Positions 21,883-39,272 of a stretch of DNA of 64,000 nucleotides are shown piece after piece; positions within the stretch are counted from its first letter, which is position 1, and each line of letters opens with the position of its first letter. Made by a program: the position numbers and the translations under genes. The notes below the pieces were generated by a model. The model ran no database searches. It was not told the origin of the DNA and saw nothing but the letters and a program-made list of their open reading frames with translations. Source of the stretch: an uncultured Acidobacteriaceae bacterium (GTDB lineage Bacteria > Acidobacteriota > Terriglobia > Acidiferrales > UBA7541); NCBI GenBank assembly GCA_963773835.1, contig CAVZCQ010000006.1, positions 46,061 to 110,060 of the forward strand. Direction: 5' to 3'.

Positions 21883-22812
21883 ATGGAACAGCATTCGAAA
21901 CGAACTCCAGAGAGCAAGGGGAAGAACCCGGCCATGAATCGCACATGCGTTGGCATTTCGAACAGCAGGCGGCTGAAAAATTCAACGCCCCCGCCCCTGC
22001 GGCGCCCCAGCCGCCCCGTGGCGATGGCCACGGCGGGAGACGACCGGCTGATGGAACTGCTGCCCCAGGTGCGTTTCATCGCGCGACGAATCCACAGCCG
22101 GCTGCCGGCGCACGTGCCGTTTGACGATTTGCTCCAGGCGGGAGTACTGGGCCTGCTGGACGCGCTGCGCAAATTCGATCCCCGGCGAAAGGTACAGCTC
22201 GAGTCGTACATGAAGTTCCGGATCCGCGGAGCGATTCTGGATGAGCTGCGCTCGCTGGATTGGAGCCCGAGGGAGCTGCGGCGGAAGGCTCGGCGGCTGG
22301 AGGAAGCCGAGCAGCAACTGCGCGGCCGGCTGGGGCGCGAGCCGGTGGCCGCGGAGCTGGCGAAAGTCACGGGAATGTCGCTGTCGCAATATCATCGCCT
22401 GGCGGGAGAGCTTCGCGGGCTGGATTTGGGAAGCCTGCAGGAAGTAGCGATGTCATCCGAGGAGGGAACGGAGCAGGATCTCTCTTCCCGGCTGGCTTCA
22501 CCGGAGGCCACCAGTCCGCTGGTAATGTGCACGAGCCAGGAGCAGCGGGGGCGTCTGGAAGAGGCAATCCGGAGGCTGCCGGAGCGGGAACGGCTGGCGC
22601 TCACTCTGTATTACTACGAAGAGCTGACGATGAAAGAGGTGGGCGAGGTGCTGGCGGTGGGGGAATCGCGGGTCAGCCAGCTCCACTCCTCGGCGTTGGT
22701 TCGGCTGCGGCAATATATGCAAGGGCAACCGGAGGCGCAGGGCGCGGGGCCAGGCACCGGCGAGCCTACCGCGCGTGGGGGTGTGCGGGCGTGCGGCTCG
22801 CCCATGGCCTAG
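21883..22812 (+). CDS. fliA: FliA/WhiG-family RNA polymerase sigma factor (sigma-28 type)
   Basis: LPQVRFIARRIHSRLPAHVPFDDLLQAGVLGLLDALRKFDP...ESYMKFRIRGAILDELRSLDW...RERLALTLYYYEELTMKEVGEVLAVGESRVSQLHSSALVRLR. The start is uncertain: alternative in-frame ATGs at 21934 and 22024. Confidence 0.8.
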   Translation: MEQHSKRTPESKGKNPAMNRTCVGISNSRRLKNSTPPPLRRPSRPVAMATAGDDRLMELLPQVRFIARRIHSRLPAHVPFDDLLQAGVLGLLDALRKFDPRRKVQLESYMKFRIRGAILDELRSLDWSPRELRRKARRLEEAEQQLRGRLGREPVAAELAKVTGMSLSQYHRLAGELRGLDLGSLQEVAMSSEEGTEQDLSSRLASPEATSPLVMCTSQEQRGRLEEAIRRLPERERLALTLYYYEELTMKEVGEVLAVGESRVSQLHSSALVRLRQYMQGQPEAQGAGPGTGEPTARGGVRACGSPMA

Positions 22813-22891
22813 GCTGGTTGACGACGGAACCCGCCACAGTGCGGCGGGCGGCTGCCTTCCTGCCTCAGGGCTGGCCGGCGCCCCCGGGTGC

Positions 22892-22918
22892 TAATGTATT
22901 TGCGGCAACTGCCGATTA
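22892..22918 (+). promoter_or_regulatory. Sigma-28 (FliA)-type promoter TAAT-N15-GCCGATTA upstream of flgM
   Basis: ctaatgtatttgcggcaactgccgattac contains TAAT at 22892-22895, a 15-nt spacer and GCCGATTA at 22911-22918. The enterobacterial/Bacillus consensus is TAAA-N15-GCCGAT(A/T)(A/T). The motif ends 43 nt before the flgM ATG. Confidence 0.6.
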
Positions 22919-22961
22919 CTTACGTCAGGGTGCCACCGGAAATCGGCGGCTGAACAATTAA

Positions 22962-23264
22962 ATGGCTGGACGCCCGCGAGATACACGAAAGAGAATCCCG
23001 GAAAATCAGGCCGCTAATCGTTCCATCCACAGTACGTTGCCGCTATTCCCCTCCCCAGAAGAAATCTCAATCTGTGACGCGTTGGCACGTTTCTGCCCGG
23101 GCCTGGATCAGGGGAAGATTCTCCAACGCCTTCGGGAAGACGAGGCTCGCCGCCGGGAGCGGGTGGATGAGCTACGGAGGCAGGTGATTGCCGGAACCTA
23201 CCACGTTTCGCCCCGTGCGGTCGCAGCCGCAATCCTGCTGGAAGGCGATCTGCTGGTCCAATAG
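22962..23264 (+). CDS. flgM: Anti-sigma-28 factor FlgM family, 100 aa
   Basis: C-terminal RRERVDELRRQVIAGTYHVSPRAVAAAILLEG matches the FlgM signature (RV..LK..I..G.Y.V....IA..LL). The size and the position directly after fliA fit. Confidence 0.7.
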   Translation: MAGRPRDTRKRIPENQAANRSIHSTLPLFPSPEEISICDALARFCPGLDQGKILQRLREDEARRRERVDELRRQVIAGTYHVSPRAVAAAILLEGDLLVQ

Positions 23265-23359
23265 GGCGACAGCGCGTGGAGCGGGCGCATCCAACCGTGC
23301 ATTGCTGGTGGTCAACGGCGAGCGCCCTCGGCACACGCGAAGGCGCCTGCCAAACCGCC

Positions 23360-23388
23360 TTGACACTCTGGGAGCGGGTTGCTAGCTT
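23360..23388 (+). promoter_or_regulatory. Candidate sigma-70-like promoter TTGACA-N17-TAGCTT for the giant surface-protein gene
   Basis: TTGACA at 23360-23365, a 17-nt spacer, TAGCTT at 23383-23388. It lies about 190 nt upstream of ATG 23580. Confidence 0.35.
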
Positions 23389-23579
23389 TGCCTCTGGCGT
23401 GGTCACAATTCCTTGGGTGGATGGCCCTCGAACCGGCGCCCGGTACGACGGTCCCAGCAGTATTCCGTGAGAAAGTTGCGCGACCTCTCTGTCTCCCGCC
23501 CGGCCTGTGCTGTCGTCATGGTTGAGGAATGCGGCTGCCCCGCCGCCAATCGGAGCCATTGCGGGGCAAGGGGAACTCG

Positions 23580-26500
23580 ATGAGACGCACCTGTTCGATG
23601 GTCTTTCCTCTTGCCGTAGCCGGCATGCTCTTCTACGGCTGCCTCTTCTCCCCGCCGCTCCGCGCGCAGACCTCAGGTAAAACGCCCGCGGCCGGGTCGT
23701 CCGGCGCGCAGGACGCGGAGACCGCCTCCGGGCGGCGTAAGGAACCCGACGAAGTTAGCCGCCGGCAGGAATGGTTCTACCACCAGCGGCGCTACCCACT
23801 CGCTCGCATCCCAGCCGGCGCGCGGCAGCAGGCCCTGCAGCAGCGCGAGGCCAGCCGCAGGGAGCAGGTCAATCGGGGAATGATAGCCGGAAACCAGAAC
23901 CCGGACCCGCCAATCATCTTCAATCCCTGGACGGCCATCGGGCCGCAGCCCACGGCGGCGAACGGATTCGACTTCCTGCAGCAGATCACAAACACCTCGA
24001 ACATCACCGATTTTTCGGGACGGATCAACGCCATCGCCGTGGATCCGAAGAACAACAACATCGTGTATCTCGGCGGCGCGGATGGAGGTCTGTGGAAGTC
24101 CACAGATGCCGGGGCGCATTGGTTGCCGCTCACGGACGCTCAGGCCTCGCTGGCCATGGGCGCCATCGCAATCGACCCGGGAAGTTGCGGCGGGGCCTCC
24201 TGCACGACGATCTACGCGGGCACAGGCGAGGCAAACTTTGCGGGAGACAGTTACTTCGGCGCGGGGGTTCTGAAATCCATCGATGGAGGGATGACCTTCA
24301 CGCAACTGGGCGCCACCGCGGGCTCGGTCACTTTCCTTAGCGCCGTGATCCCGACCAGCTTCGTGGGGCCGTTCGACAGCCAGACGGGCGGCGCCTTCTT
24401 CAGCGACATCGTAGTGAACCCGACGAACTCGCTCCAACTGCTCGCCAGCGTGGACTTCGGAGCAGAGACCAAAGCTTCAGGGATCTTCTGTTCGGACAAC
24501 GGCGGGATGAACTGGAAGCAGGTGGTGGCTGGAGCGGCAGGCACCGCGGTGGTGATCGCTGCGGACGGCAAAACCGCTTTCGGGGCATTGGGCGATCCCG
24601 GGGGCCTGGCCGCAAACGGGATTTATCGATCCACGACTGCCAACAACACATGCGCGACCCAGACCTGGACGCTGCTGAACGCGGCTCCACTGCCCTCGGG
24701 AACGGCCGCGGGCCGGATCTCGCTCGGGCTGGCTCCGAGCATCGCAACCAGCCCCTTCACGCTTTACGCAGCCATCGCGAATCCCTTGAATCAGTCGAGC
24801 ACCTTTCTGGATGTTTTCAAATCGGCGAACACCGGCACGACATGGAGCGCGACGCATGCGCCGGACATCTGCCAGATGCAGTGCTTCTACGACATGGTAA
24901 TCAAGGTGCACCCGAACAACTCGAGCGTGGTGTTCCTCGGCGGCTCGGCAGTCACCAACAGCAACAAAATGGATATATTCCTCCTGCGCTCGACCAACGG
25001 GGGTGGTACGTGGGACGCCGGCAACCTCACTACTGACATAGCCTTCGACGGCACCAACGAAATCCACGTGGACCAGCACGCCATCGCTTTTTCGCCGCCG
25101 ACGCCCGGCGCAGGAAGCTACACCATGTATGTGGGGAACGATGGTGGCGCCTGGGACACGCCCATGACCTGCAACACCATCAACCCCGGGACCTGCTCCA
25201 CGGTAGCCTGGACGGATTTGAACTTGACGCTGTCGCTCTCCCAGCACTATGCCGGAGTCTCGATGCACCCGGCCAGCCAACTGGTGGTTATGGGCGGATT
25301 CCAGGACAACGGCTCGCAGAAATACGACGCCGGGACGTTCCCCGGCTCGACCGCCTGGACCATGATCAACGGTTCCGATGGGGGAGCCACGTACATTGAC
25401 CGTGGAGTTCCCAGCACGGTCTATGCCACCACGGAATTCATTCCCAACTTTTCCTTCATCACGAAATCGGTGACCAACGGCGACCTGGACTCGACGAACG
25501 CGATCACGTTTTCGCAAGCCACGAACGGGATCGACGCCAACGGCACCGGCTCGGACTATTCCGAATTCATCCCGCAGCTCGCCAGCGACCCCACGCCGGG
25601 GAATAACCGGGTGCTTTACTATCCCACCTGCAATCTGTACCAGTCGCGGGATGGCGCGGGGAACTGGACGGCTATGACCGCCGCTTCGCTTTGTGCGGCC
25701 GGGCTGGCGGACTATACGACGATTGCTCCCGCGGCCGACGGAAATACCGTGTACGCCGGAGACAGTAATGGCGGCGTGCACGTAACCACGAATGCGATTC
25801 GCGCGGCCAACGCGGCGTGGACGAACGTAACGAAAGCGCCGCTTCCGGGCCGCTTTATCACCAAAATCGCCGTGTCGCCCACGAACCCGCAATTCGCTCT
25901 GGTAGCCTATTCCGGTTTTTGTGGCTTCAACGCCGGCGACAACGTGGGGCACGTGTTCGAGACCGCGAATGGCGGCACGAGTTGGACGGACATCAGCGGC
26001 GGCTGCAATGGGGTTGTCGGCCAGGCCCTGCCCAACACGCCTGTGAACGACATCGTGATCGACCCGGCGGACAACACGAACCAGACCTTTTATGTGGCCA
26101 CGGACGTGGGCGTGTTTATCACCTCGAATGGCGGGGGCGTATGGCTGCAACTCGACCAGCAGCCCCGGACGCTGCCGGACGGCGTGGTGCTTTCCCTCAC
26201 GCTGCGGAATGAATCGCGGACGCTGGTGGCCGGGCTGCACGGGCGGGGCGCCTGGGCGATGCAGTTGCAGTCGTTCATGCCGGCGTACGGGCTGGCCTCG
26301 CTTACGCCGGTGTTTGCAGCGCAGGGCAGCGCGGCAGACGTGATGCTGACGGCGAACGGAGAGGGGTTTGTGTCGGGCGACACAGTGCAATTCAACGGCG
26401 TGGGGCTGGTGACGACTTTCGTTTCGCCAACGAAACTGACGGCGACAATCCCGGCGGCAATGCTGGCGAACCGGGGCACCGCCTCGATCACCGTCTTTGA

Positions 26501-29500
26501 TGCGACGAACATGTCGAGTAATGCCCTGCCCTTCAGCGTGGTGCTTATCTACAGCGCCGCGGCGGCGGCGCCGCCGAACGACCTGTTTATGAACGCCATC
26601 GCCGTCCCCGCGAGCATGACCTCGTTCACGGATATCCAGAACACCTTTGCCGCCACGATGACCCCGACCGACCCGAATCCCAGTAGCGTCAACGGCTGCA
26701 TTCTCATGGGTGCGAATATTCCGCCACCGGCCAGCAACGGCGCGGCCAACAGCATCTGGTATTCCTACACCCCGACGACGAACGCGATGGTCGAGGCCGA
26801 TACCGTCGGCAGCACCGTGCCGTTAAATAACCAGGGCCTGTTCGGGACCGCGGATACGATCCTCGAGGTGGTCACCGGATCGCCGGTAGCCTTCACCGCA
26901 GTGGCGTGCAACGACGACATCGTCTCCGGAAACTTCATCACCTCAGAGGTCAAGTTCTTGGCCGCGGCAAATACGACGTACTTCTTTATGGTGTCGCAGT
27001 ATGAGGGTGTGGGCGGGATCACGGTGTTCAACCTGAACGCCACGCCCATGCCCACGTTGACGTCTATCACGCCGAACAGTGGATTGACCGGAAGTTCCTT
27101 CATGGTCACCCTCATGGGCTCAGGCTTCACCGCTCCTGTCACGCTCAACTTCAATGGCACGGGAGGTTCGTTCTCCAACGTGCAGGTGGTCAGCAGCACG
27201 ATGATTACGGCCACGCTTACCCTCGCGTCGGGCTTGATGACGGCGACCGATACGGTCTCGGTGACGAACAGCGAGGCTACCAGCAATACGGTGAACTTCC
27301 AGGTCACCAACGGTCCGCCCACGCTGACTTCCATTGCGCCCTCCATGGGCGCGCAGGGCGCAGCGATTCCTGTAACCCTCACCGGAACCAATTTCGACAA
27401 TTCGAGCGCCATTGTGTTCGGCGGGACGGGAATCACGTCGTCGACTCCGGTAGTGGTGAACAGCACCCAGATCACCGCCACGTTCACCATCTCCGGCACC
27501 GCCGCGACGCAAACCGTGATGGTCACCACCATGGCCGGAATGAGCGGGACGGTGCAGTTCACTGTGAATCCGGCGCCGACCATCTCCTCGATCAGCCCCG
27601 CCACGGGCGGCCAGAACAGCGCCATCACGGTAACCATCATCGGCACCAATTTCTTCTCTCCCGCCACCGTGACCGTGAGCGGAACGGGCGTGACGGTGAC
27701 CAATGCGACGGTAACTAGCCCGACGACCATTACGGCCACGTTTACCATCGCCTCGAACGCCACGATCTCCGGGCGCACGGTTTCCGTCACCACGGACGGA
27801 TTCACCGTCAACAGCCCCACCATGTTTACCGTCACTGCGCCGGTGCCGACCTTGAATTCCATCAGTCCGGCGAGCGGAGTCCTCGGGGTAGGCGGCGCCA
27901 CGCAGATGGAATCAGTAACCCTCACGGGTTCCAACTTCGTCGCCCCGGTCACGATCAACTTCAGCGGCACGGGCATCACGGCGACGAGCGTCACGCTGCA
28001 GAGCAGCACTACCATCACCGCAGTTTTCAATATTGCCCCGACCACCGCGCTGGGGACGCAGAATGTGACGGTGACGGCCGGAGGCCAGACCTCGGGGAGC
28101 CAGACGTTTACGGTCGCCTCGCCGCCCACGCTCACTTCGATCAGCCCGACGAGCGGGGTAGTGGGTACCAGCGTTCCCGTCACGCTCACGGGGACAAACT
28201 TCTTCAGCCCGGCCACGATCAACTTTAGCGGGACGGGAATCACCGCAAACAGCGTGACGGTGACCAGCGGGACCACGATCACCGCGACGTTTGTCATCGC
28301 GGCGAATGCGCCCCTGGGCGGCCAGACGATCTCTGTGACCACGAGCGGCGTGACCACTTCCTCCATGGCCGTGCAGTTCACCGTGAATCCCCCGGCGCCC
28401 ACGCTGACCAGCTTGAGCTTGCCGATGGGCGCTCAGGGCGCGGCTTCGATCAGCGAAACGCTGACAGGGACGAATTTCCAAACCGGCGCCGGGAACACAA
28501 CCATCAGTTTCAGTGGGACGGGCATCACGGCGTCGAACATCAACGTGACCAGTTCGACCTCGCTCACGGCCACCTTTATGGTCGCTGCGGGCGCCTCACC
28601 GGGCGCTCAGACCGTGTTCGTGACCACCGCCGGTGGCGCTTCGGCAAACATGACCACTTTCACCGTGGAAGCTGCTCCGACATTGACGATGCTCAGCCAG
28701 ACCACGGGCGTTCAGGGCACTACCACCTCCACGATCACGCTGACGGGGATGAACTTCTTCAGCCCGGCCTCGATTTCCTTCAGCGGGAGCGGCATCACGG
28801 CCAACAGCGTCACCGTGACCAGCACGACCACGATTACGGCAACCTTTACGATTGCCGCCAATGCTCCGCTCGGCCCGCAAACCGTCTTCGTCACCACTGA
28901 CGGCGTGACCACTTCCAACGTGGTGCAGTTCACCGTCAATCCTCCAGTGCCAACGCTCACATCGCTGAGCGTCACGATGGGCGCTCAGGGCGGGACCGTG
29001 AATGAGACGCTGACAGGAACGAATTTTGTGTCCGGAGCCACGATCCAGTTCAGCGGCTCGGGCATCACCGCGTCCAACGTGGTGGTCGTGAGCGCGACGA
29101 GCATTACGGCCACGTTTACGATTTTGGGCACAGCCACGCCGGGGGCGCAAAACGTGACGGTGATGACCTCGGGCGGCACTTCGGGGAGCAAACCGTTCAC
29201 GGTGGAAAGTGCGCCCAGCCTCACCTCGCTCAGCCAGACCATGGGCGCGCAGGGAACCACCACCGGCACGATTACGCTCACGGGCATGAATTTCTTCAGC
29301 CCGGCTTCGATTTCTTTCAGCGCCTCCGGCATCACGGCCAACAGCGTGACGGTGACGAGCGGGACCACGATTACGGCGACCTTCACGATCGCGGCGGGCG
29401 CGACGCTGGGGCCGCAGACCGTCTTTGTGACCACCGACGGCGTGACCACGGCCAATGTGGTGCAGTTTACCGTTGAAGCGCCCCCAACACTGGGCATGAT

Positions 29501-32500
29501 CAGCCCGGCGGGCGGCGATCAGGGCGCGGCCGTGCCGGTGACGCTCACCGGGACCAACTTCTTCTCTCCCGCCATGGTGGCCGTGAGCGGGACCGGCGTA
29601 ACCGTGAGCAATGTGGTGGTGATGAATTCGACGACCATCACGGCAACGTTCACCATCGCCGCGAATGCCACCCTTTCCTCCCGGACGGTCTCGGTCACCT
29701 CGGACGGAGTGACCACCGGGACGGTGATGTTTGGCGTGAACCCGCCGGCGCCCACGCTCACGGCGCTGAGCGTCACGATGGGGGCACAGGGCGCGGTGAT
29801 CAATGAAACGCTCACGGGGACGAACTTCGTCACCGGAGCCGGGAACACGACCATCAGTTTCAGCGGCGCGGGCGTCACGCCATCGAACATCAACGTGACC
29901 AGCGCGACCTCGCTCACGGCCACGTTTACCGTCGCTGCGGGCGCTTCGCCGGGCGCTCAGACGGTGTTTGTGACGACCTCGGGCGGCACGTCCACCAACA
30001 TGACCACGTTCACCGTCGAGGCTGCTCCTACGCTGACCATGCTGAGCGTGACCGCCGGCGATGAAGGCACCACCACCGGCACGATTACTCTCACGGGCGC
30101 CAATTTCTTCACTCCGGCCAGCATCACGTTCAGCGGAACTGGAATCACAGCCAACAGCGTGACGGTAACGAGCCCGACCACGATTACGGCCACGTTCACG
30201 GTCGCGGCGAACGCGACGCTGGGTGCCCAGACCGTGTTCGTGACCACCGACGGCGTGACCACTTCCAACGTGGTGCAGTTCACCGTCAACCCGCCTGCGC
30301 CCACCCTCACCGCGCTCAGCACCACGATGGGAGCCCAGGGCGCGGTGATCATGGAAACCCTGACCGGGACGAACTTCCAGATGGGCGCCGGGACCACCAC
30401 CATCAGCTTCAGCGGGGCGGGGATCGTAGCGTCGAATATCAACGTGACCAGCGCGACCTCGCTCACCGCCACCTTTACGGTCGCTGCCAACGCCGCGGCG
30501 GGCGCTCAGACCGTGTTCGTGACCACCGCGGGCGGCAAATCGGCCAACATGACCACCTTCACGGTCAACGCCGCGCCCACGCTCACCATGCTCAGCCAGA
30601 CCATGGGCGCCCAGGGCACCACCACCGGCAGCATCACGCTGACGGGCACGAATTTCTTCACTCCGGCCAGCATTTCGTTCAGCGCCATGGGCATCACCGC
30701 GAACAACGTGACGGTGACGAGCGCGACCACGATTACGGCGACCTTCACGATCGCGGCGGGCGCGACGCTGGGGCCGCAGACCGTCTTTGTGACCACCGAC
30801 GGCGTGACCACGGCCAACGTGGTGACCTTTACCGTGGACGCTCCGCCTACGGTGACCATGATCAGCCCGGCCATGGGGGGCCAGAACACGGCGACCAACG
30901 TGACCATCACCGGAACCAACTTCTTCTCTCCCGCGGTGGTCAATATCACCGGAACGGGAGTCACGGTGAGCAGCGTGATGGTGACGAGCCCGACGACCAT
31001 CACCGCGACGTTTACCATCGCTTCCGGCGCTACGCTTTCCGGACGAACCGTAACGGTGATGACCAACGGGGCCACCACGGCCACGGGAGTCACGTTTACC
31101 GTAATTCCGCCCGTTCCCAACATCACCATGCTCAGCCCGACGATTGGGGCGCAGGGCACCACCGTCAACCTCACGATTACGGGCACGAATTTCCTGGTTG
31201 GAGCCGGCAACACGGTCAACTTCGGCGGCGCGGGCGTGACGGTGATGAACACCAATGGCACGAGCGCGACCACGATCACGACGCAACTGGTGATCGCCGC
31301 CGGGGCCGCTCTGGGCGCTCAGAACATTTCGGTGACCACTTCCGGCGGAACCTCGAACAACTCTCCATTTACGGTGGAGGCGCCACCGACGCTGACCATG
31401 CTGAGCCAGACCAGCGGCAATCAGGGCACCACTACGCCCACGATTACGCTGACGGGCACCAATTTCTTCTCGCCGGCCACGATTTCGTTCAGCGGGACGG
31501 GGATCACGGCGAACAGCGTGATGGTGACCAGCACGACCACCATCACGGCGACGTTCACGATTGCGGCAAACGCAACGCTGGGTCCGCAGACCGTTTTCGT
31601 GACCACCGACGGGGTGACCACTTCCAACGTCGTCCAGTTCACCGTCAATCCGCCCGTGCCCACCCTCACCCTGCTCAGCCAGACCCAGGGCGCCCAGGGA
31701 ACTACCGTCAGCCTCACGCTGACGGGCGCCAACTTCATCATGGGCGCGACGACGGTGAACTTCAGCGGCGCGGGCGTCACGGTCCAGAACACCATGGTCA
31801 CCAGCGCCACCACCCTCACCACACAGTTTGTAATCGGCGCCGGGGCCGCGCTGGGCGCGCAGAACGTTTCGGTGACCACGGCGGGAGGCACTTCGGGGAA
31901 CCAGACCTTCACGGTCGAAGCCCCGCCCACCCTCACCATGCTCAGTCTGACCACGGGCGTTCAGGGCACCACCACGTCCACGATTACGCTGACGGGAACG
32001 GGCTTCTTCACTCCGGCCACAATCAGCTTCAGCGGCACGGGCATCACCGCAAATAGCGTGACAGTGACCAGCACGACCACCATCACGGCCACATTCACGA
32101 TCGCGGCCGGCGCCGCGCTGGGACCACAGACCGTCTTTGTGACCACCGACGGGGTGACCACTTCCAACGTCGTGCAGTTCACCGTCAACCCGCCTGCGCC
32201 CACCCTCACCGCGCTCAGCACCACGATGGGAGCCCAGGGCGCGGTGATCATGGAAACCCTGACCGGGACGAACTTCCAGATGGGCGCCGGGACCACCACC
32301 ATCAGCTTCAGCGGGGCGGGGATCGTAGCGTCGAATATCAACGTGACCAGCGCGACCTCGCTCACCGCCACGTTCACCATCGCTGCCAACGCCGCGGCGG
32401 GCGCTCAGACCGTGTTCGTGACCACCGCGGGCGGCAAATCGGCCAACATGACGAATTTCACGGTCGAGGCCGCGCCCACGCTCACCTCGCTCAGCCAGAC

Positions 32501-35489
32501 TATGGGCGCCCAGGGCACCACCACCGGCACCATCACGCTGACGGGCACCAGTTTCTTCACTCCGGCCAGCATTTCGTTCAGCGCCATGGGCATCACGGCG
32601 AACAACGTGACGGTGACGAGCGCGACCACGATTACGGCCACCTTCACGATCGCAGGAAACGCAACGCTGGGGCCGCAGACCGTCTTTGTGACCACCGACG
32701 GCGTGACCACGGCCAACGTGGTGACCTTCACCGTGGACGCTCCGCCTACGGTGACCACGATCAGCCCGGGGATGGGCGGCCAGAACACCATGGTGTCGGA
32801 GACCATTACCGGGACCAACTTCTTCTCTCCCGCCACGGTGGCCGTGAGCGGGACCGGGGTGACGGTGAGCAACGTGATGGTGACGAGCCCGACGACCATC
32901 ACGGCCACGTTCACCATCGCCTCCAATGCCACGCTCTCCGGGCGTACCGTGTCCGTCACGACGAACGGAGTGACGGCCAACAGCCCGACGATGTTTACCG
33001 TGACGCCGCCGGTTCCCAACATCACCATGCTCAGCCAGACGATGGGAGCACAGGGGACGACCGTCAACCTGACCATCACGGGCACGAACTTTGTGACCGG
33101 GGCCGGCGGCAGCACAGTGAATTTCAGCGGCGCGGGCGTGAACGTATTGAACACGAACGCCACCAGCACGACAACAATTACGACGCAACTGATGATCACC
33201 GCCGGGGCCGCCCTGGGCATGCAGAACATCTCTGTGACCACATCCGGCGGAACCTCGAACAACGCCGCGTTTACCGTGGAGGCTCCGCCCACACTGACCA
33301 TGTTGAGTGTGACGAGCGGGGACGAGGGCACTACCACTCCAACGATTACTCTCACGGGGACGAATTTCTTCTCGCCCGCCACGATTTCATTCAGCGGGAC
33401 GGGGATCACGGCGAACAGCGTGATGGTGACCAGCACGACCACCATCACGGCAACGTTTACGATCGCGGCGAACGCAACGCTGGGTCCGCAGACCGTCTTC
33501 GTGACCACGGACGGCGTGACCACCTCGAACGTGGTGCAGTTCACCGTCAATCCGCCCGCGCCCACCCTCACCGCGCTCAGCCAGACCATGGGCGCGCGGG
33601 GAACTACCGTCAACCTCACGCTGACAGGCACGAATTTCCAGACTGGCGCCACGACGGTGAACTTCAGCGGCGCGGGCGTCACGGTCCAGAACACGATGGT
33701 GACCAGCGCCACCAGCCTCACCACGCAGTTTGTAATCGGCGCCGGGGCCGCGCTGGGCGCGCAGAACGTTTCGGTGACGACTGCGGGAGGCACTTCGGGG
33801 AACCAGTCCTTCACGGTGGAAGCCCCGCCCACCCTCACCATGCTCAGCCAGACGAGTGGGGATGAGGGCGCCACCACCGGCACGATCACGCTCACGGGCA
33901 CGAATTTCTTCACTCCGGCCAGCATTTCGTTCAGCGGCACCGGAATCACGGCCAACAGCGTGATGGTGACCAGCACGACAACGATTACGGCCACCTTTAC
34001 GATCGCCGCCAATGCCCCGCTCGGGGCGCAAACGGTCTTCGTGACCACCGACGGCGTGACCACTTCCAACGTGGTGCAGTTCACCGTCAACCCGCCCGCG
34101 CCCACGCTGACCATGCTCAGCGCGACTTCCGGGGTGCAGGGCAACACGGTGATGGAGACGCTCACGGGGACCAACTTCCAGATGGGAGCCGGGGCCACCA
34201 CGGTCAACATCACCGGGGCGAACATCATGGTGACCGGCACGAACGTGACCAGCTCCACGACGCTCACGGTGAATTTTGTGCTCGCGGCCAACGCCTCGCT
34301 CGGCGCTCAAAACGTAACGGTGACCACGGCCGGCGGCACGTCCGGTACGCAGACGTTCACCGTGCTTCCGCCGCCACCAACGCTCACCATGCTGAGCGCG
34401 TCCACCGGCGTGCAGGGCAACACTGTGGCAGAGACGCTGACCGGGACGAATTTCGTCGCCGGCGCGACGACCATCTTGTTCAGCGGCTCCGGAATCACCA
34501 CCACGAACGTGATGGTGACCAGCCCGACGACCCTGACGGCGAACTTCGTGATCAGCGCCACGGCCACGCTGGGCATTCAAAACGTATCCGTGATGACCGC
34601 CGGAGGGACATCGGGGACACAGCCGTTTACGGTGTTTCCGCCGCCGCCGACGATTACTGCCATCAGCCCGACAGGCGCCACGCTGGGAACTGCGAATCTG
34701 ATGGTGACGATCACGGGCACGAACTTCGTTACCGGGCCGCTCTTCAAGGTCAACGTGCCCGCCGGCCAGGGCATCACTGTGACGAACGCTACGGTGGTGA
34801 GCAGCACCATGATTACGGCGACGTTCACGATTGCGGCGAACGCCACCACGCCATTGCAGAACGTGACCGTGACCACGGCAGGCGGGACCAGCAACAACCA
34901 GCCCTTCGGCGTGGGCACGAACTTCACGATGACGGAGAATCCCTCCTCCAGCACGGTCATGGCAGGGGGAATGGCCGGCACCACGCTCACGATTATGTCC
35001 ACGACGCCAAACACTCAGTTCCCGGCCAACGTGCAGTTCTCCGCATCGGGACTGCCCAATCTTTCCACGTGCAACTTCACCAGCACGGCAGCCGGATTCA
35101 TGGGAGGCGCGACGGGAATCCTGCCGGCAGCCGACGGGACCGCGGCCATGACGCAGGTGATGTTCATGTGCACGACCACCAAGGCGTCATTCGTGGCGCC
35201 GCGCACGCCTGCACCCTGGGCACCGCTGGGCGCCTCGCCGCTCGTCGCTCTGGCCTGGGGAACGCTGCTGATGGCGCTCGGCGCAGGATTGGTCGCCGCC
35301 AGGCAGCAGCGCGGCCGCCGGCTGCAGTGGGCGCTCGCCGCCTTCCTGATCCTGGCCTTCGCAGGCTTCTCGAGCGCCTGCCACAACATGGGCATGCCGG
35401 GCACCATGCCGGGACCGTACAACATCACTGTGAAGGCCACCTCCGGCAACGCCACGCAGACCGTCACCTACACGCTGACGGTGCAGTAG
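23580..35489 (+). CDS. Giant secreted surface protein (~3969 aa): signal peptide, BNR/Asp-box beta-propeller, 1 IPT/TIG, PPC-like jelly-roll, ~29 tandem IPT/TIG domains, C-terminal split Ig-like module with TM hairpin
   Basis: Track ORF 23529..35489. I prefer ATG 23580 (RBS aagggga; the same start context ctcgATGAGACGC as the paralogue). About 9 Asp-box-like motifs are present (STDAGAHW, SIDGGMTF, SRDGAGNW, TANGGTSW...). The repeated unit is P.LT.[IL]S...G.QG.....LTGTNF....I.FSG.GIT...V.V.S.TTITATF.I...A.LG.Q.V.V.T.G.....FTV. Confidence 0.9.
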   Translation: MRRTCSMVFPLAVAGMLFYGCLFSPPLRAQTSGKTPAAGSSGAQDAETASGRRKEPDEVSRRQEWFYHQRRYPLARIPAGARQQALQQREASRREQVNRGMIAGNQNPDPPIIFNPWTAIGPQPTAANGFDFLQQITNTSNITDFSGRINAIAVDPKNNNIVYLGGADGGLWKSTDAGAHWLPLTDAQASLAMGAIAIDPGSCGGASCTTIYAGTGEANFAGDSYFGAGVLKSIDGGMTFTQLGATAGSVTFLSAVIPTSFVGPFDSQTGGAFFSDIVVNPTNSLQLLASVDFGAETKASGIFCSDNGGMNWKQVVAGAAGTAVVIAADGKTAFGALGDPGGLAANGIYRSTTANNTCATQTWTLLNAAPLPSGTAAGRISLGLAPSIATSPFTLYAAIANPLNQSSTFLDVFKSANTGTTWSATHAPDICQMQCFYDMVIKVHPNNSSVVFLGGSAVTNSNKMDIFLLRSTNGGGTWDAGNLTTDIAFDGTNEIHVDQHAIAFSPPTPGAGSYTMYVGNDGGAWDTPMTCNTINPGTCSTVAWTDLNLTLSLSQHYAGVSMHPASQLVVMGGFQDNGSQKYDAGTFPGSTAWTMINGSDGGATYIDRGVPSTVYATTEFIPNFSFITKSVTNGDLDSTNAITFSQATNGIDANGTGSDYSEFIPQLASDPTPGNNRVLYYPTCNLYQSRDGAGNWTAMTAASLCAAGLADYTTIAPAADGNTVYAGDSNGGVHVTTNAIRAANAAWTNVTKAPLPGRFITKIAVSPTNPQFALVAYSGFCGFNAGDNVGHVFETANGGTSWTDISGGCNGVVGQALPNTPVNDIVIDPADNTNQTFYVATDVGVFITSNGGGVWLQLDQQPRTLPDGVVLSLTLRNESRTLVAGLHGRGAWAMQLQSFMPAYGLASLTPVFAAQGSAADVMLTANGEGFVSGDTVQFNGVGLVTTFVSPTKLTATIPAAMLANRGTASITVFDATNMSSNALPFSVVLIYSAAAAAPPNDLFMNAIAVPASMTSFTDIQNTFAATMTPTDPNPSSVNGCILMGANIPPPASNGAANSIWYSYTPTTNAMVEADTVGSTVPLNNQGLFGTADTILEVVTGSPVAFTAVACNDDIVSGNFITSEVKFLAAANTTYFFMVSQYEGVGGITVFNLNATPMPTLTSITPNSGLTGSSFMVTLMGSGFTAPVTLNFNGTGGSFSNVQVVSSTMITATLTLASGLMTATDTVSVTNSEATSNTVNFQVTNGPPTLTSIAPSMGAQGAAIPVTLTGTNFDNSSAIVFGGTGITSSTPVVVNSTQITATFTISGTAATQTVMVTTMAGMSGTVQFTVNPAPTISSISPATGGQNSAITVTIIGTNFFSPATVTVSGTGVTVTNATVTSPTTITATFTIASNATISGRTVSVTTDGFTVNSPTMFTVTAPVPTLNSISPASGVLGVGGATQMESVTLTGSNFVAPVTINFSGTGITATSVTLQSSTTITAVFNIAPTTALGTQNVTVTAGGQTSGSQTFTVASPPTLTSISPTSGVVGTSVPVTLTGTNFFSPATINFSGTGITANSVTVTSGTTITATFVIAANAPLGGQTISVTTSGVTTSSMAVQFTVNPPAPTLTSLSLPMGAQGAASISETLTGTNFQTGAGNTTISFSGTGITASNINVTSSTSLTATFMVAAGASPGAQTVFVTTAGGASANMTTFTVEAAPTLTMLSQTTGVQGTTTSTITLTGMNFFSPASISFSGSGITANSVTVTSTTTITATFTIAANAPLGPQTVFVTTDGVTTSNVVQFTVNPPVPTLTSLSVTMGAQGGTVNETLTGTNFVSGATIQFSGSGITASNVVVVSATSITATFTILGTATPGAQNVTVMTSGGTSGSKPFTVESAPSLTSLSQTMGAQGTTTGTITLTGMNFFSPASISFSASGITANSVTVTSGTTITATFTIAAGATLGPQTVFVTTDGVTTANVVQFTVEAPPTLGMISPAGGDQGAAVPVTLTGTNFFSPAMVAVSGTGVTVSNVVVMNSTTITATFTIAANATLSSRTVSVTSDGVTTGTVMFGVNPPAPTLTALSVTMGAQGAVINETLTGTNFVTGAGNTTISFSGAGVTPSNINVTSATSLTATFTVAAGASPGAQTVFVTTSGGTSTNMTTFTVEAAPTLTMLSVTAGDEGTTTGTITLTGANFFTPASITFSGTGITANSVTVTSPTTITATFTVAANATLGAQTVFVTTDGVTTSNVVQFTVNPPAPTLTALSTTMGAQGAVIMETLTGTNFQMGAGTTTISFSGAGIVASNINVTSATSLTATFTVAANAAAGAQTVFVTTAGGKSANMTTFTVNAAPTLTMLSQTMGAQGTTTGSITLTGTNFFTPASISFSAMGITANNVTVTSATTITATFTIAAGATLGPQTVFVTTDGVTTANVVTFTVDAPPTVTMISPAMGGQNTATNVTITGTNFFSPAVVNITGTGVTVSSVMVTSPTTITATFTIASGATLSGRTVTVMTNGATTATGVTFTVIPPVPNITMLSPTIGAQGTTVNLTITGTNFLVGAGNTVNFGGAGVTVMNTNGTSATTITTQLVIAAGAALGAQNISVTTSGGTSNNSPFTVEAPPTLTMLSQTSGNQGTTTPTITLTGTNFFSPATISFSGTGITANSVMVTSTTTITATFTIAANATLGPQTVFVTTDGVTTSNVVQFTVNPPVPTLTLLSQTQGAQGTTVSLTLTGANFIMGATTVNFSGAGVTVQNTMVTSATTLTTQFVIGAGAALGAQNVSVTTAGGTSGNQTFTVEAPPTLTMLSLTTGVQGTTTSTITLTGTGFFTPATISFSGTGITANSVTVTSTTTITATFTIAAGAALGPQTVFVTTDGVTTSNVVQFTVNPPAPTLTALSTTMGAQGAVIMETLTGTNFQMGAGTTTISFSGAGIVASNINVTSATSLTATFTIAANAAAGAQTVFVTTAGGKSANMTNFTVEAAPTLTSLSQTMGAQGTTTGTITLTGTSFFTPASISFSAMGITANNVTVTSATTITATFTIAGNATLGPQTVFVTTDGVTTANVVTFTVDAPPTVTTISPGMGGQNTMVSETITGTNFFSPATVAVSGTGVTVSNVMVTSPTTITATFTIASNATLSGRTVSVTTNGVTANSPTMFTVTPPVPNITMLSQTMGAQGTTVNLTITGTNFVTGAGGSTVNFSGAGVNVLNTNATSTTTITTQLMITAGAALGMQNISVTTSGGTSNNAAFTVEAPPTLTMLSVTSGDEGTTTPTITLTGTNFFSPATISFSGTGITANSVMVTSTTTITATFTIAANATLGPQTVFVTTDGVTTSNVVQFTVNPPAPTLTALSQTMGARGTTVNLTLTGTNFQTGATTVNFSGAGVTVQNTMVTSATSLTTQFVIGAGAALGAQNVSVTTAGGTSGNQSFTVEAPPTLTMLSQTSGDEGATTGTITLTGTNFFTPASISFSGTGITANSVMVTSTTTITATFTIAANAPLGAQTVFVTTDGVTTSNVVQFTVNPPAPTLTMLSATSGVQGNTVMETLTGTNFQMGAGATTVNITGANIMVTGTNVTSSTTLTVNFVLAANASLGAQNVTVTTAGGTSGTQTFTVLPPPPTLTMLSASTGVQGNTVAETLTGTNFVAGATTILFSGSGITTTNVMVTSPTTLTANFVISATATLGIQNVSVMTAGGTSGTQPFTVFPPPPTITAISPTGATLGTANLMVTITGTNFVTGPLFKVNVPAGQGITVTNATVVSSTMITATFTIAANATTPLQNVTVTTAGGTSNNQPFGVGTNFTMTENPSSSTVMAGGMAGTTLTIMSTTPNTQFPANVQFSASGLPNLSTCNFTSTAAGFMGGATGILPAADGTAAMTQVMFMCTTTKASFVAPRTPAPWAPLGASPLVALAWGTLLMALGAGLVAARQQRGRRLQWALAAFLILAFAGFSSACHNMGMPGTMPGPYNITVKATSGNATQTVTYTLTVQ
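27042..34919 (+). repeat. In-frame tandem array of ~29 IPT/TIG-domain coding repeats (unit ~270-285 nt)
   Basis: Counted by eye from the translation, one unit per ...FTV[NEDT][PA] boundary. Several alternating subtypes are visible (NINVTS type, FF[ST]PA[ST]ISF type, GQN...VTS type, PNITMLS type). Confidence 0.85.
30291..34091 (+). repeat. Two consecutive ~1.9-kb super-repeats (7 IPT domains each; 30291-32189 and 32190-34091) that are near-identical at nucleotide level
   Basis: Offsets of 1899 and 1902 nt. The stretches I compared by eye (about 30241-30860 vs 32141-32760, and 31381-31690 vs 33281-33590) differ at only a few percent of positions. Confidence 0.8.
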
Positions 35490-35495
35490 GGGCGG

Positions 35496-35514
35496 CCTGC
35501 CTGCCGCAGGCAGG
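35496..35514 (+). terminator. Hairpin CCTGCCTGC-C-GCAGGCAGG just after the giant gene stop (weak terminator or attenuator; only a CTTT tail)
   Basis: Inverted repeat read directly, 7 nt after the stop codon. Confidence 0.3.
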
Positions 35515-35619
35515 CTTTACGCGGCCATTTCGGAACGCCGCACGACGGCCGCGCGTGTCAACCGGGCGGGATTAACCCGCCCCGACACTCTCGGAGCAGT
35601 GGCCCGGCCAGGGAGCTCG

Positions 35620-38600
35620 ATGAGACGCGGTCCTTCGGTGGTCTTTCTTTTTGGGGTGGCCAGCCTGGTACTGGCCGGATGGCTCATCTCCCTTCCGCTC
35701 CGGGGGCAATCCACGGGGGACCGTCCGCCAACAGCGAATCCGCGGGATGACGGAGACGAAAATTCCGCCTCGGGCCCTGAGAGTGAACGCGACGACGTCC
35801 GCGGCCGGGAGGAGTGGTTCTATCGCCAGCGGCGGTATCCGCTGGCGGCGATTCCGGGTGGCGCGCGACTGAAGGCGCTCGAGCGAAAAGAGGAGATGCG
35901 CCGCGCGCAGCGCGAACAGCGCAACGGCTCCGGCGGCGCGAATGCGAGCACCTTCATCGCCCTCCGAATGCTGGCCAGTGCCACGGCGTGGACTCCCATC
36001 GGTCCGACGCCGACCGCAGATGCCGACCCTGCCGTGGGGCTGGTATCGGGCCGGGTCACTGCGATCGCGGTGGACCCCACGAACTCCAACATTGTTTTTG
36101 TGGGTGGCGCCCAGGGCGGTGTGTGGAAGTCCACCGACGGGGGAGCGCACTGGCTGCCCATGTTCGACACGGAAAAAACGCTGGCCATCGGCTCGATCGC
36201 CATCGACCCTTCGAGCTGCGCTCCGGCGCCTTGCACAACCCTGTATGTGGGCACCGGCGAGCAGAATTTCTCCGGCGATTCCTACTATGGAGCGGGCATC
36301 TATAAATCCACAGATGGCGGCATGACCTGGGCCCAGGTCCTGGGCGAAACCATCCTGAACCCGCAGCCCGCCGCGCCGGATTCCTTTCTTCCGCCGGCAG
36401 CGCCGTTCAACCAGGCTGTCGGCGGCGCGCGCATCGGCGCATTGGTTGTGCATCCGGCGACGCCAACGCGAATTTTCGCTGCCGTGCAGATCTTCGAGAA
36501 CGTGGGAGGCGGCGCCAGCTCCGGCATCTATTGCTCGGATGATGAAGGCTCAACGTGGACGCAAGTAATTTCCGGCGCCATCGGAACCGACGTGGCCATC
36601 AATGCGACGGCAGGGATTGGCTATGCGGCGCTGGGATCAAACAATGGGGACACAGACAACCGCGACACGACAGGCCAGAACGGCGTGTACAAGTCCGTCA
36701 ATGTCAATGCGGCTTGCGCGAGCCAAACCTGGACGCTGGTGAGCAAGGCGCCCGTCCCACTGGCCACCGCTGCGGGGACGATCCGGCTGGGACTGGCCCC
36801 CTCCGACGCCAGCGGCAATACCTTGTACGCCGCGGTCACCAATCCCATCTCCTCGACCCCGCCTTTCAATACCACGCTCGCCGGCGTGTTCAAGACGGTC
36901 AATGGGGGGACGACGTGGACCGTCGTCACTCCTTCCCAGGATTTCTGCATGAACCAATGCGATTACGACCTGGCGCTGAAGGTTCACCCCAACGACGCCA
37001 ATACCGTATTTGCCGGCGGGTCGGCGGTCCGCGACAACGGCGGCCAGCCTTTCTTCCTGCTGCGAACGAACGACGGCGGCGCCACCTGGACGCAGATCGC
37101 GCAGGATTCAGGCGGCACGCTGCTGCACGTGGATCAGCATGCCATCGCATTTGGATTTACTGGTGCGAATGTGAGCTCGATCTTTGTGGGCAACGATGGG
37201 GGAATCTGGCGCTCGCCGCTGGCTGCGCCCATGAGCCCCATTGCCTGGACGAACCGGAACCAGACTCTGCAGCTCTCTCAGTTCTATCCCGGGATTTCGA
37301 TGGATCCGGCGACGGCGAATCTCGGCTTCGGAGGCACACAGGACAACGGCACGCAGAAATATGACGTCGCGGCCAACCCTCCGAACCAGTGGATTGAGCA
37401 GGCCCCGTGCGGGGACGGCGGCTACACGGCGATTGATCCGGCTTCGCCGAGCACCATTTATGCGGCTTGCCAGAAGATCCGTATTCGCAAGTCATTCAAC
37501 GACGGGGCGGACAATTTCTTCACCGCCGCGGACAGCGGCATCGCGCAATCCGACCGGTCTGAGTTCATCCCCCCGCTGGTGATTGATCCGAATCCGGCCA
37601 GCTCCAACCGGCTGTACTTCGGTACGTACCGCGTGTGGCAGACCGCCAACGGAGGAGGAAGCTGGATCGCGATTTCCCCCGATCTGACCGCCGGTCCTGC
37701 GAACTCCCCCGATTTGACCAGCCTCTCTGTGTCTCCCGTGAATTCCGACGTAGTTTACGCAGGAACGTTTGACAGCAAAGTGTGGCGCACCACAAATGCC
37801 AGCTCCGGGAGCGGAGCCACATGGACGGAACTGGACGGGGGTACGCTCCCGCCGCGAGCCATCACCGAGGTTGTCGCCGACCCCAACCGTGCGGATTCCG
37901 TGTTCGTCACCGTTTCGGGTTTCAGTGGATTCCAGATCAACCCGCCGGCGACGGACACGCAGGGGCACGTGTTCCGTTGCTCCGCCACCCAGTCCTCCTG
38001 CACGGACATCAGCGGCGCTGGGGCCGGCGCTTTGCCTAACGTGCCGGTCAACGCCATCGTGGTGGACCCGATTGACGCCATCAGCGACACCCTGTACATC
38101 GGCACCGACGTCGGCGTGTTTGCGAGCCTGGACGGAGGCACCACCTGGCAGCCCGATTTTCCCGGGGCGCCGAATGGGCTGCCCAACGTGGCCGTACTTT
38201 CATTGACGCTGCAGCCCACGGTGCGAATTCTGCGGGCCGGCACGCACGGGCGCGGCGCCTGGGACCTGCAGCTTTCCAATGTGGCGCCTCTCCGGCTGGC
38301 CTCCCTGGCGCCGAACACCGCGCCGGTGACCACGATGAGCCTGTTGCTGACGTTGACCGGAGGGGGTTTCACATCGAACTCCACGGTATTGTTCAACGGC
38401 GTCACGCACACGCCGTCGTTGCAGAGCTCGATGCAGATGACGGCCACGCTGAATGCGGGCGACTTTTCGAGCGTCGGCCCGGTGAACGTGCAGGTATCCG
38501 ACCCGGTGGGCGGCCTCTCCGACACGATGACTTTCACGATCACGAACGACTTCAAGTTCTGTGTGGGTGTGAGCGCGGGCATGGCGTGCCCCATCACGGG

Positions 38601-39165
38601 CTCTGGTTCCACACCCCGCGGGGTTGCGCTGGCCACCCCGCTCACGATTATGCCTGCCCAGAGCGCTCCCTTCCCTGCCAACGTGCTGTTCTCCTGTTTG
38701 GGATTGCCGAACGAGTCGTCGTGCAACTTCACGAGCACCGCGCCTGGATTCAGCGCCAATCCGCCGACGTTGCCAGCCTCCGCTGGAACGATGGGGAACA
38801 CGCAGGTGACCGTATCGTTCATGACCACCGCCCCGTCGCTCGTGGCGCCGCGAGGGCGCCGGCGGGGGCCCCCGGTGGCCGCGCCGCCGGTCGTAGTCTT
38901 TGCCTGGGGCTCGCTGCTGGCCGCACTGAGCGCCGGGCTGATCGCCGCTGCTCGCCAGCGCCGCACACGGCTGCGTTGGGTATTCGCGGTCCTGCTGCTC
39001 CTGGCGTTCGCGGGGATGACCGGCGGCTGCGGAGGCAGCAGCGGGAATGGAGGCGGAGGAGGCGGGGGAAATCCAGGGACCATGCCGGGAACATATCCCA
39101 TCACAGTGATGGCCACGTCCGGCAGCGTGTCTCACAGCGTCACGTACACGCTGACGGTGCAGTAG
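35620..39165 (+). CDS. Paralogue of the giant gene without the IPT array (~1181 aa): signal peptide, BNR/Asp-box propeller, one IPT/TIG, the same C-terminal split Ig/TM-hairpin module
   Basis: Track ORF 35599..39165; ATG 35620 has RBS agggag. The N-terminus is collinear with the giant protein (GRVTAIAVDPTNSNIVFVGGAQGGVWKSTDGGAHWLPMFD vs [40 protein letters not shown]). The last 9 aa, VTYTLTVQ plus stop, are identical. Confidence 0.9.
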   Translation: MRRGPSVVFLFGVASLVLAGWLISLPLRGQSTGDRPPTANPRDDGDENSASGPESERDDVRGREEWFYRQRRYPLAAIPGGARLKALERKEEMRRAQREQRNGSGGANASTFIALRMLASATAWTPIGPTPTADADPAVGLVSGRVTAIAVDPTNSNIVFVGGAQGGVWKSTDGGAHWLPMFDTEKTLAIGSIAIDPSSCAPAPCTTLYVGTGEQNFSGDSYYGAGIYKSTDGGMTWAQVLGETILNPQPAAPDSFLPPAAPFNQAVGGARIGALVVHPATPTRIFAAVQIFENVGGGASSGIYCSDDEGSTWTQVISGAIGTDVAINATAGIGYAALGSNNGDTDNRDTTGQNGVYKSVNVNAACASQTWTLVSKAPVPLATAAGTIRLGLAPSDASGNTLYAAVTNPISSTPPFNTTLAGVFKTVNGGTTWTVVTPSQDFCMNQCDYDLALKVHPNDANTVFAGGSAVRDNGGQPFFLLRTNDGGATWTQIAQDSGGTLLHVDQHAIAFGFTGANVSSIFVGNDGGIWRSPLAAPMSPIAWTNRNQTLQLSQFYPGISMDPATANLGFGGTQDNGTQKYDVAANPPNQWIEQAPCGDGGYTAIDPASPSTIYAACQKIRIRKSFNDGADNFFTAADSGIAQSDRSEFIPPLVIDPNPASSNRLYFGTYRVWQTANGGGSWIAISPDLTAGPANSPDLTSLSVSPVNSDVVYAGTFDSKVWRTTNASSGSGATWTELDGGTLPPRAITEVVADPNRADSVFVTVSGFSGFQINPPATDTQGHVFRCSATQSSCTDISGAGAGALPNVPVNAIVVDPIDAISDTLYIGTDVGVFASLDGGTTWQPDFPGAPNGLPNVAVLSLTLQPTVRILRAGTHGRGAWDLQLSNVAPLRLASLAPNTAPVTTMSLLLTLTGGGFTSNSTVLFNGVTHTPSLQSSMQMTATLNAGDFSSVGPVNVQVSDPVGGLSDTMTFTITNDFKFCVGVSAGMACPITGSGSTPRGVALATPLTIMPAQSAPFPANVLFSCLGLPNESSCNFTSTAPGFSANPPTLPASAGTMGNTQVTVSFMTTAPSLVAPRGRRRGPPVAAPPVVVFAWGSLLAALSAGLIAAARQRRTRLRWVFAVLLLLAFAGMTGGCGGSSGNGGGGGGGNPGTMPGTYPITVMATSGSVSHSVTYTLTVQ

Positions 39166-39184
39166 GGGCGGCTTTATGCCGCCC
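39166..39184. terminator. Hairpin GGGCGGC-TTTAT-GCCGCCC between convergent genes
   Basis: Read directly. It starts immediately after the TAG stop at 39163-39165. Confidence 0.35.
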
Positions 39185-39272
39185 TGCCCGGAGCTTAGCC
39201 GCCAATGAAAAGGCCCGGAACCGATCACATCGGCTCCAGGCCTCTTGCTTGAAAGCTGGCCAGGACTGGAAC

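Follow-up and report, generated by a model that had tools for sequence, protein, structure and literature searches.

A predicted fibrillar-adhesin-type giant protein of an uncultured Acidobacteriaceae bacterium, with a stalk of 29 IPT/TIG units and a putative lipo-invert tail

The RTX adhesins LapA and MpIBP, as well as SiiE, are giant adhesins with near-identical repeats. In the fibrillar adhesins and fibrillar-adhesin-like proteins (Monzon et al. 2021, PMC8286594), a terminal binding region and an anchor module at the opposite end are joined by a stalk of tandem Ig-like domains in a single chain, and the repeat number varies within the family. The gene described here lies at 23580-35489 on the forward strand of a 64,000-nucleotide (nt) stretch of DNA from an uncultured Acidobacteriaceae bacterium, hereafter called the window, and its giant product shares each of these features, the binding region and the anchor being putative; it is an ordinary member of a known protein kind. 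Measured against the definition of fibrillar-adhesin-like proteins in PMC8286594, the protein has 29 consecutive IPT/TIG units as its stalk, an N-terminal propeller with a PPC-like module as candidate adhesive parts, and a putative C-terminal anchor. It differs from the described fibrillar adhesins in its head, which has a 770-amino-acid (aa) Asp-box propeller in place of a classical adhesive domain and whose binding is putative, and in its anchor, which is neither an LPXTG motif nor a retention module of the type I secretion system nor an autotransporter barrel. Like the RTX adhesins and SiiE, the protein is very long, with tens of tandem Ig-like domains and higher-order repeats; however, its repeats are 53-97% identical in DNA, a type I secretion signal and RTX repeats are missing, and the head is N-terminal with the anchor at the C-terminus. 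Giant repeat-stalk surface proteins are common, and longer arrays of units of the same CoaZ type exist elsewhere.

We consider it rather likely that the product of the gene is a giant protein of the fibrillar-adhesin type that is secreted and tethered to a membrane, and whose stalk has grown in this lineage with an old seven-unit duplication and patchy homogenisation. In such a protein, the Sec signal peptide would direct export, and the distal GH74-like propeller, followed by the first IPT unit and the PPC-like jelly-roll, would probably bind a ligand and not cut it, the propeller and the jelly-roll being the candidate ligand-binding modules at the tip. The 29 IPT/TIG domains would form a stalk of about 100 nm, assuming 3.5-4 nm per Ig-like domain, and the lipo-invert tail at the C-terminus would tether the protein to the membrane. 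The features that make up the protein are as follows.

23580..35489, forward strand: whole gene, stop codon included; 3,969 aa, about 397 kDa
23580..23666, forward strand: probable Sec-type signal peptide (MRR, a hydrophobic core, then LRA with Q after the cleavage site), which aligns with the N-termini of the two closest orthologues, P0001 and P0002, and of the tandem paralogue, P0016
23955..26264, forward strand: head, a beta-propeller of the Asp-box (BNR) kind with about 770 aa, GH74-like and Sortilin/Vps10-like, from Pfam, the Asp-box motifs and a family profile
26289..26546, forward strand: first IPT/TIG unit (U1), between head and jelly-roll (Pfam TIG 1.3e-6; NCBIfam CoaZ_rpt_PGGG 6.2e-19)
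26571..27044, forward strand: PPC-like, collagen-binding-domain-like jelly-roll with conserved motifs P-x-ND-x-F, DP, SxWY, ACNDD and TTYFFMVS
27051..34937, forward strand: stalk of 29 tandem IPT/TIG (CoaZ-type) units, U2-U30, of 86-97 aa each

A single open reading frame (ORF) runs without interruption from 23529 to 35489 on the forward strand, where an in-frame ATG at 23529 would add 17 aa upstream. Judged from the sequences, the start at 23580 is the better one, because the signal-peptide-like sequence MRx...VFP.AVAG also opens the closest homologues and the paralogue, and because the gene and its paralogue share the start context CTCGATGAGACGC, with a purine-rich stretch before it. The cleavage site of the signal peptide is a reading by eye. 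The original prediction had described one ORF of about 3969 aa, in which a signal peptide, an Asp-box propeller, one IPT unit and a PPC-like jelly-roll are followed by IPT/TIG units; both the frame, at 23580-35489, and the domain order hold. It had also spoken of a surface-protein gene with about 30 IPT/TIG domains; that architecture is found, and the surface location is putative. Long ORFs also lie antisense to the array, for example at 28596-33188 on the reverse strand, and reach 1,530 aa without domain support; in a window with a G+C content of about 64%, they look like by-products of G+C-rich repeats.

The number of units past the jelly-roll, which had been put at about 29, is exactly 29, or 30 when U1 is included. 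Over the whole protein, the Pfam TIG model (PF01833) reaches 127.7 bits against a cutoff of 20.9, and 17 of the 30 units match it singly at E < 0.01. The NCBIfam model NF058597 (CoaZ_rpt_PGGG, choice-of-anchor Z repeat) matches in 30 stretches with 533.4 bits (cutoff 30, E 3.5e-164). The only other recurrent match in the units is the Ig-like Qn_am_d_aIII, which occurs in 14 of 30. The assignment to the IPT/TIG family thus withstood the search with hidden Markov models (HMMs), and the units were not moved to a different Ig-like family. Every one of the 30 units matches NF058597, yet the PGGG motif from which that model takes its name is found nowhere in the stalk, where GG[TAKQ]S or DGVTT stands in its place.

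The 2,629 aa of the stalk contain 25% Thr, no Cys, 4 Lys and 5 Arg, and 42 acidic residues, an extreme composition that is rich in Thr and nearly free of charge. The stalk also carries 59 N-x-S/T sequons and may be glycosylated. The arrangement of unit types follows the block pattern c d e f e g e / c f e f e / c h e h e f e / c h e h e. Between U6 and U27, a conserved type named 'e' (...FFSPA..GITANSVTVTS..TTDGVTT..) fills every other position, with more variable types between, and the 'c' type recurs every 5 or 7 units. This alternation points to a stalk with a structural period of two domains.

The original prediction had named the array as the region most likely to be mis-assembled, and the concern is reasonable, since a short-read contig stops at the edge of the array. 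The Logan contig ERR11523662_295023 (6,414 nt, run ERR11523662) corresponds to 34067-40480 of the window with 100% identity and encodes P0016. Its start at 34067 is the first 31-mer that leaves a 59-nt exact repeat at 34038-34096, which fits an assembler word length of k = 31, the value that we take Logan to have used. The contig thus gives independent confirmation of the 3' flank, and an assembly from short reads alone does not get across the array.

One alternative is that the array is partly an artefact of assembly or polishing, with a wrong copy number, chimeric units, or near-identical patches made by short-read polishing of a long-read assembly. The break of the independent contig exactly at the 3' edge, in the 59-nt repeat, is consistent with such an artefact, as is the result of an exact look-up in the public gene collection, in which the giant protein was not found with either start codon. 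However, the 11.9-kb frame is intact, and the 29 units are all of full length (86-97 aa) and all distinct. The ratio of nonsynonymous to synonymous divergence (dN/dS) is below 0.5 in every tested pair of units, which is not expected of random chimeras or sequencing errors, and the longest exact repeat in the gene is 200 nt, so that ordinary long reads could place each unit. An artefact of this kind is accordingly judged unlikely, although the near-identical patches may still owe something to polishing.

Within the array, units U14-U20 and U21-U27 form two super-repeats of seven units, in the register that had originally been proposed: the offset is 1899-1902 nt, and the two blocks have the same order of unit types when the units are clustered by DNA identity.

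30300..32198, forward strand: super-repeat copy A, units U14-U20, types f e c h e h e
32199..34100, forward strand: super-repeat copy B, units U21-U27, same type order; 86.8% nucleotide and 88.9% aa identity to copy A
30273..30472, forward strand: exact repeat of 200 nt, the longest of the gene, shared with 32172-32371; 182 nt of this run lie inside the copies

A 62-aa peptide quoted earlier as identical in both copies does occur twice, at aa 2239 and aa 2872. The nucleotide identity of the copies, which had been estimated by eye at 95% or more, is in fact 86.8% in the global comparison of 30291-32189 with 32190-34091, and only about the first 600 nt and some short patches of the copies reach 92-100%. 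For the unit pairs from U14/U21 to U20/U27, the DNA identity is 97, 94, 74, 82, 88, 91 and 81%, and the synonymous divergence (dS) according to Nei and Gojobori is, in the same order, 0.07, 0.12, 0.78, 0.64, 0.53, 0.18 and 0.64, with dN/dS values of 0.05-0.41. U23 shares 80% identity with U4 but only 74% with U16, which holds the corresponding position in copy A.

The divergence is distributed unevenly over the seven unit pairs (chi-square p = 2e-17), and the longest identical run within the copies, 182 nt, compares with a maximum of 105 nt in 10,000 permutations of the differences. A further exact tract of 93 nt joins U10 and U15, at an offset of five units. Tandem Repeats Finder reported nothing, although the unit period lies within its limit; the identity between units is mostly below 70-75%, and the period of the super-repeat exceeds 500.

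Because dS rises to 0.78 while dN/dS stays at 0.05-0.41, the simplest reading of these comparisons is that the seven-unit duplication is old and that its copies have been kept alike by purifying selection on the protein. The 200-nt exact tract can be read as a recent tract of gene conversion or crossover. On the simplest reading of the recent events, they consist of patchy exchange over a few hundred bases, on top of old five-unit and seven-unit block duplications. The copies seemed near-identical by eye because the protein is highly conserved, not because they are recent; the protein similarity of 88.9% masked an old duplication with saturated synonymous sites, which calls for caution with by-eye judgements such as "recent" or "hypervariable".

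The contrary reading, which was that of the original prediction, is a very recent duplication of the super-repeat, with ongoing unequal recombination that would vary the stalk length in the manner of a contingency locus. The 200-nt tract, the identities of 97% for U14/U21 and 94% for U15/U22, the statistical significance of the mosaic and the strong expansion of the array relative to the orthologues all speak for it, and they have to be set against the overall identity of 86.8%, the dS of 0.53-0.78 in four of the seven pairs, and the closeness of U23 to U4 rather than to U16. In addition, there is no identical pair of units, and the majority of the exact repeats fall short of 100 nt; with so few long exact repeats, the units are therefore poor substrates for frequent slippage or unequal crossover. 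We regard a very recent duplication as quite improbable. What stands of the earlier view is past exchange between units, to which the exact tracts and the uneven divergence testify; a stalk length that varies between strains or cells found no support here, and the same dS values and the position of U23 speak against "very recent 1.9-kb duplications".

An old block duplication with patchy homogenisation can be placed in the context of the relatives of the protein. The head family is large: of the candidates examined, 2,916 proteins scored E <= 1e-5, nearly all of them from metagenomes of the Acidobacteriota type and typically 1.0-1.7 thousand aa long. The heads of the two closest orthologues, P0001 and P0002, are 61% identical to that of the giant protein. 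Between the jelly-roll and the tail, P0001 has a U2-like and a U30-like unit, and P0002 has a U30-like unit alone. Because the closest orthologues hold only one or two stalk units, the 27 internal units were either gained in this lineage or lost elsewhere. In the preferred case, the stalk would have grown from 1-2 to 29 units by tandem duplication of multi-unit blocks, at offsets of five and seven units, and gene conversion or unequal exchange would occasionally have made its copies alike again over stretches of a few hundred bases.

The largest number of units is 8 among the 120 best head homologues and 10 among the 120 best matches of a seven-unit query. A profile of the unit, searched against 1.84 billion representative sequences, matched 26,211 proteins, some of which are 4,000-6,200 aa long and carry arrays of 38-59 units. 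The array of 30 units is thus unusual in the head family and not among proteins at large, and the idea that its length is unique was rejected, as many longer arrays occur in the representative library. The top match of this profile, P0241 (5,962 aa), has 59 units with a literal PGGG motif, a different N-terminal head, and a C-terminus that resembles a sorting domain for type IX secretion (T9SS) at scores below the cutoffs; the unit family is therein combined with a different, better-known kind of surface-sorting tail. When the representative genomes of GTDB were searched with the head, the only relatives were 28-37% identical, and therefore no close strain is among these representatives. In a search of 5.8 billion proteins, the closest JGI relatives are only 54-55% identical.

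The head matches the Pfam family Sortilin-Vps10 (PF15902) with 39.0 bits at a gathering cutoff of 33, and the BNR models match more weakly; Sortilin-Vps10 is also the precomputed assignment of nearly all homologues. Seven Asp-box motifs are present. A profile built from 27 family members and compared with the PDB finds GH74 xyloglucanases at E 4e-16 to 1e-8, among which the structures 2cn3, 6p2k, 4lgn, 5fkr and 6mgj are matched at E 4e-16 to 1e-13. A GH74 enzyme is built from tandem propellers of seven blades and has about 730-790 aa, with which the size of the head agrees. The similarity to GH74 xyloglucanases such as Xgh74A of Clostridium thermocellum (2cn2/2cn3) extends to the size of about 750 aa and the Asp-box blades; unlike them, the head carries Ala at the position of Asp70 and is joined to a stalk and a membrane tail.

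The catalytic pair of Xgh74A consists, as we take it, of Asp70 and Asp480. Structure 2cn2 (ARADIGG) departs from the mutant 2cn3 (ARAAIGG) at Asp70 alone, which confirms this member of the pair. In the HMM alignment, Asp70 falls on Ala167, which is invariant in the family; the local sequence of the head is YLGGADGG (region of aa 167-174, window 24078-24101), and the family consensus is GGAQGG. The residue beside the invariant Ala is Asp in the giant protein and Gln in most family members. Because the position of Asp70 is an invariant Ala, the head is read as GH74-like in fold and probably not a GH74 enzyme.

The most doubtful of the alternatives is a stalk-mounted enzyme, in which an active GH74-type head, with the PPC-like module as its carbohydrate-binding part, would be presented to plant or fungal polysaccharide: it can draw on the profile match at E 4e-16, a partial match to the NCBIfam glycosylhydrolase model F510_1955 and the appearance of CBM6 and CBM35 among the fold matches of the jelly-roll, but F510_1955 reaches only 70 bits at a cutoff of 175, the GH74 matches are borne largely by the Asp-box blades, and an invariant Ala, with its Asp neighbour here and Gln neighbour in most members, stands where Asp70 would be expected.

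With the head regarded as a candidate binding module, the jelly-roll is the second one. Of the 120 best head homologues, at least 68 share this conserved module, some of them with two copies. The region 26571-27080 matched no family of Pfam or NCBIfam at E <= 1, PPC (PF04151) included. An AlphaFold2 model from 29 sequences has a mean predicted local distance difference test (pLDDT) score of 77.6, and the five best matches of this model in the PDB, as found with Foldseek, are collagen-binding domains of ColG and ColH and a pre-peptidase C-terminal (PPC) domain of B. anthracis, with 1nqd, 3jqw and 5sv5 in the lead. The scores are borderline, with a probability of 1.00, E 1.4e-3 to 2.5e-3, and a target TM-score of 0.49-0.56 for these five and of up to 0.58 among the best matches. 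The original description as PPC-like is therefore supported, on the model, at the level of the fold with borderline scores, where ColG, ColH and PPC are the best matches, and membership in the family found no support in the sequence HMM search. The module likewise opens with N-D-x-F, a segment that we presume to be a PPC trait. It differs from the domains of ColG and ColH (1nqd, 3jqw) and from PPC (PF04151) in its length of about 160 aa against about 110-120 aa, in extra loops, and in having no sequence HMM match.

The C-terminal end of the protein consists of a tail with the following parts.

34938..35189, forward strand: terminal Ig-like domain, N-terminal part, strands before the hairpin (AlphaFold2 pLDDT 94-97)
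35238..35300, forward strand: hydrophobic helix 1, predicted stop-transfer transmembrane segment, from hydropathy and the AlphaFold2 model (helix 107-129)
35301..35321, forward strand: Arg cluster RQQRGRR between the helices, predicted cytoplasmic loop
35322..35381, forward strand: hydrophobic helix 2, like a lipoprotein signal peptide, ending in the invariant Cys (35379-35381) of an SSAC box
35412..35486, forward strand: last two beta-strands (GPYNITVKATSGNATQTVTYTLTVQ), predicted to complete the split Ig-like domain (pLDDT 96-98)

The last 189 aa match the NCBIfam model NF058595 (invert_tail, 'lipo-invert putative C-terminal anchoring domain') with 58.4 bits at a cutoff of 37. The AlphaFold2 model of the tail has a pLDDT of 87 and two helices in its middle. 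In Foldseek alignments, Ig-like domains of the PDB with 100-123 aa span about 190-200 columns of the 189-residue query; since they align across the whole tail, the last strands would belong to the same Ig fold, with the helices as an insertion. A match of the tail model to a 'CLIPPER domain' was dropped, as this is merely another Ig-like stalk domain. The giant protein is laid out as in NF058595, with an Arg cluster between two hydrophobic helices, then an invariant Cys and a beta-hairpin at the end; unlike in most members, its box is degenerate (SSAC), and the Gly run after the Cys is replaced by HNMGMPG.

All 33 aligned tails have the Cys that ends helix 2. By our own counting rule, a lipobox-like Cys is found in 93 of 120 tail matches, usually followed by GG, and boxes of the canonical kind ([LVI][ASTVI][GAS]C), such as LSGC, LAGC, IAGC and VSGC, are common. 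The Arg cluster, helix 2 and the Cys have the layout of n-region, h-region and lipobox seen in a lipoprotein signal peptide. The topology would have the passenger outside, the Arg loop inside and the last strands outside. The tail stands at the extreme C-terminus in full length in 63 head homologues and is present at least partly in about 85 of 120. It also occurs on unrelated passengers, among them Big_3_5, peptidase S8, phosphoesterase, FG-GAP and He_PIG, and therefore behaves as sorting signals do; the profile search from which this was taken returned mostly short C-terminal fragments, which show the diversity of passengers rather than full architectures.

A tentative proposal, to which we give a distinctly low probability, is that the tail is an uncharacterised way of anchoring large secreted proteins of Acidobacteriota, as an 'inverted' lipoprotein that is lipidated at its C-terminal end. 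In this proposal, the second helix of the hairpin would serve as an internal lipoprotein signal peptide within the split Ig-like domain, the invariant Cys would be lipidated, and signal peptidase II would cut before it. Beta-strand complementation alone would then fasten the giant passenger to a lipidated peptide, about 35 residues long, an arrangement that could permit transfer to the outer membrane or a regulated release. The tail is widespread and has a curated NCBIfam model, and it may represent a new route of sorting or anchoring in a poorly studied soil phylum.

Several points weigh against the reading of the gene as a membrane-tethered protein of the fibrillar-adhesin type. The boxes are non-canonical, SSAC in the giant protein and TGGC in the paralogue, and no paper that mentions the tail ('lipo-invert', 'invert_tail') was found. 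If the inner membrane retains the hairpin, an additional step of export or release would be needed to bring a stalk of about 100 nm to the surface of a diderm cell; as an inner-membrane hairpin would leave the long stalk no room, the lipobox and a possible second cleavage are of interest. Furthermore, one of the two GH74 catalytic positions can be aligned, the region of Asp480 giving no alignment; the PPC assignment depends on borderline Foldseek scores; the structure models cover the jelly-roll and the tail, and the head is read from its sequence; and the copy number of the units comes from a single assembly. A literature search found no paper joining three of Acidobacteria, Sortilin, BNR and TIG domain.

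The gene that follows encodes a protein with the same head and tail.

35620..39165, forward strand: tandem paralogue and next gene, 1,181 aa, with the same head, one IPT unit and the tail, and neither jelly-roll nor stalk

Its head is 43% identical to that of the giant protein over 1,022 aligned positions, and its tail matches NF058595 with 86.9 bits. A public protein, P0016, on record from a 133-kb NCBI/ENA contig, is 100% identical to the paralogue. The locus offers a natural pair, with 29 and no stalk units on the same head family and tail, that could be used for testing the effect of stalk length. If the reading as an inverted lipoprotein is true, the paralogues would present heads of one kind, at distances from the membrane that differ greatly. 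This stalk-less paralogue, like the C-terminal tail and the replacement of Asp by Ala in the GH74-like head, goes beyond what the original prediction had described.

A scan of 22800-39400 for promoters and terminators gave no promoter-like site, and terminator-like sites were fewer than in shuffled sequences. Upstream, on the forward strand, a 654-aa ORF at 19637-21601 contains an OmpR-type response regulator with its receiver domain from about aa 390, and a gene of the sigma-70 family with regions 2, 3 and 4 lies at 21883-22812. Downstream, an outer-membrane barrel protein of 1,383 aa with CarboxypepD_reg and OMP_b-brl_4 is encoded at 45092-49243 on the forward strand, and a Ser/Thr kinase of 1,412 aa with TPR repeats and a TonB_C domain at 49554-53795 on the reverse strand. 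The barrel and kinase genes are of the content expected for Acidobacteriota. The AT skew is strongly negative at 50-54 kb.

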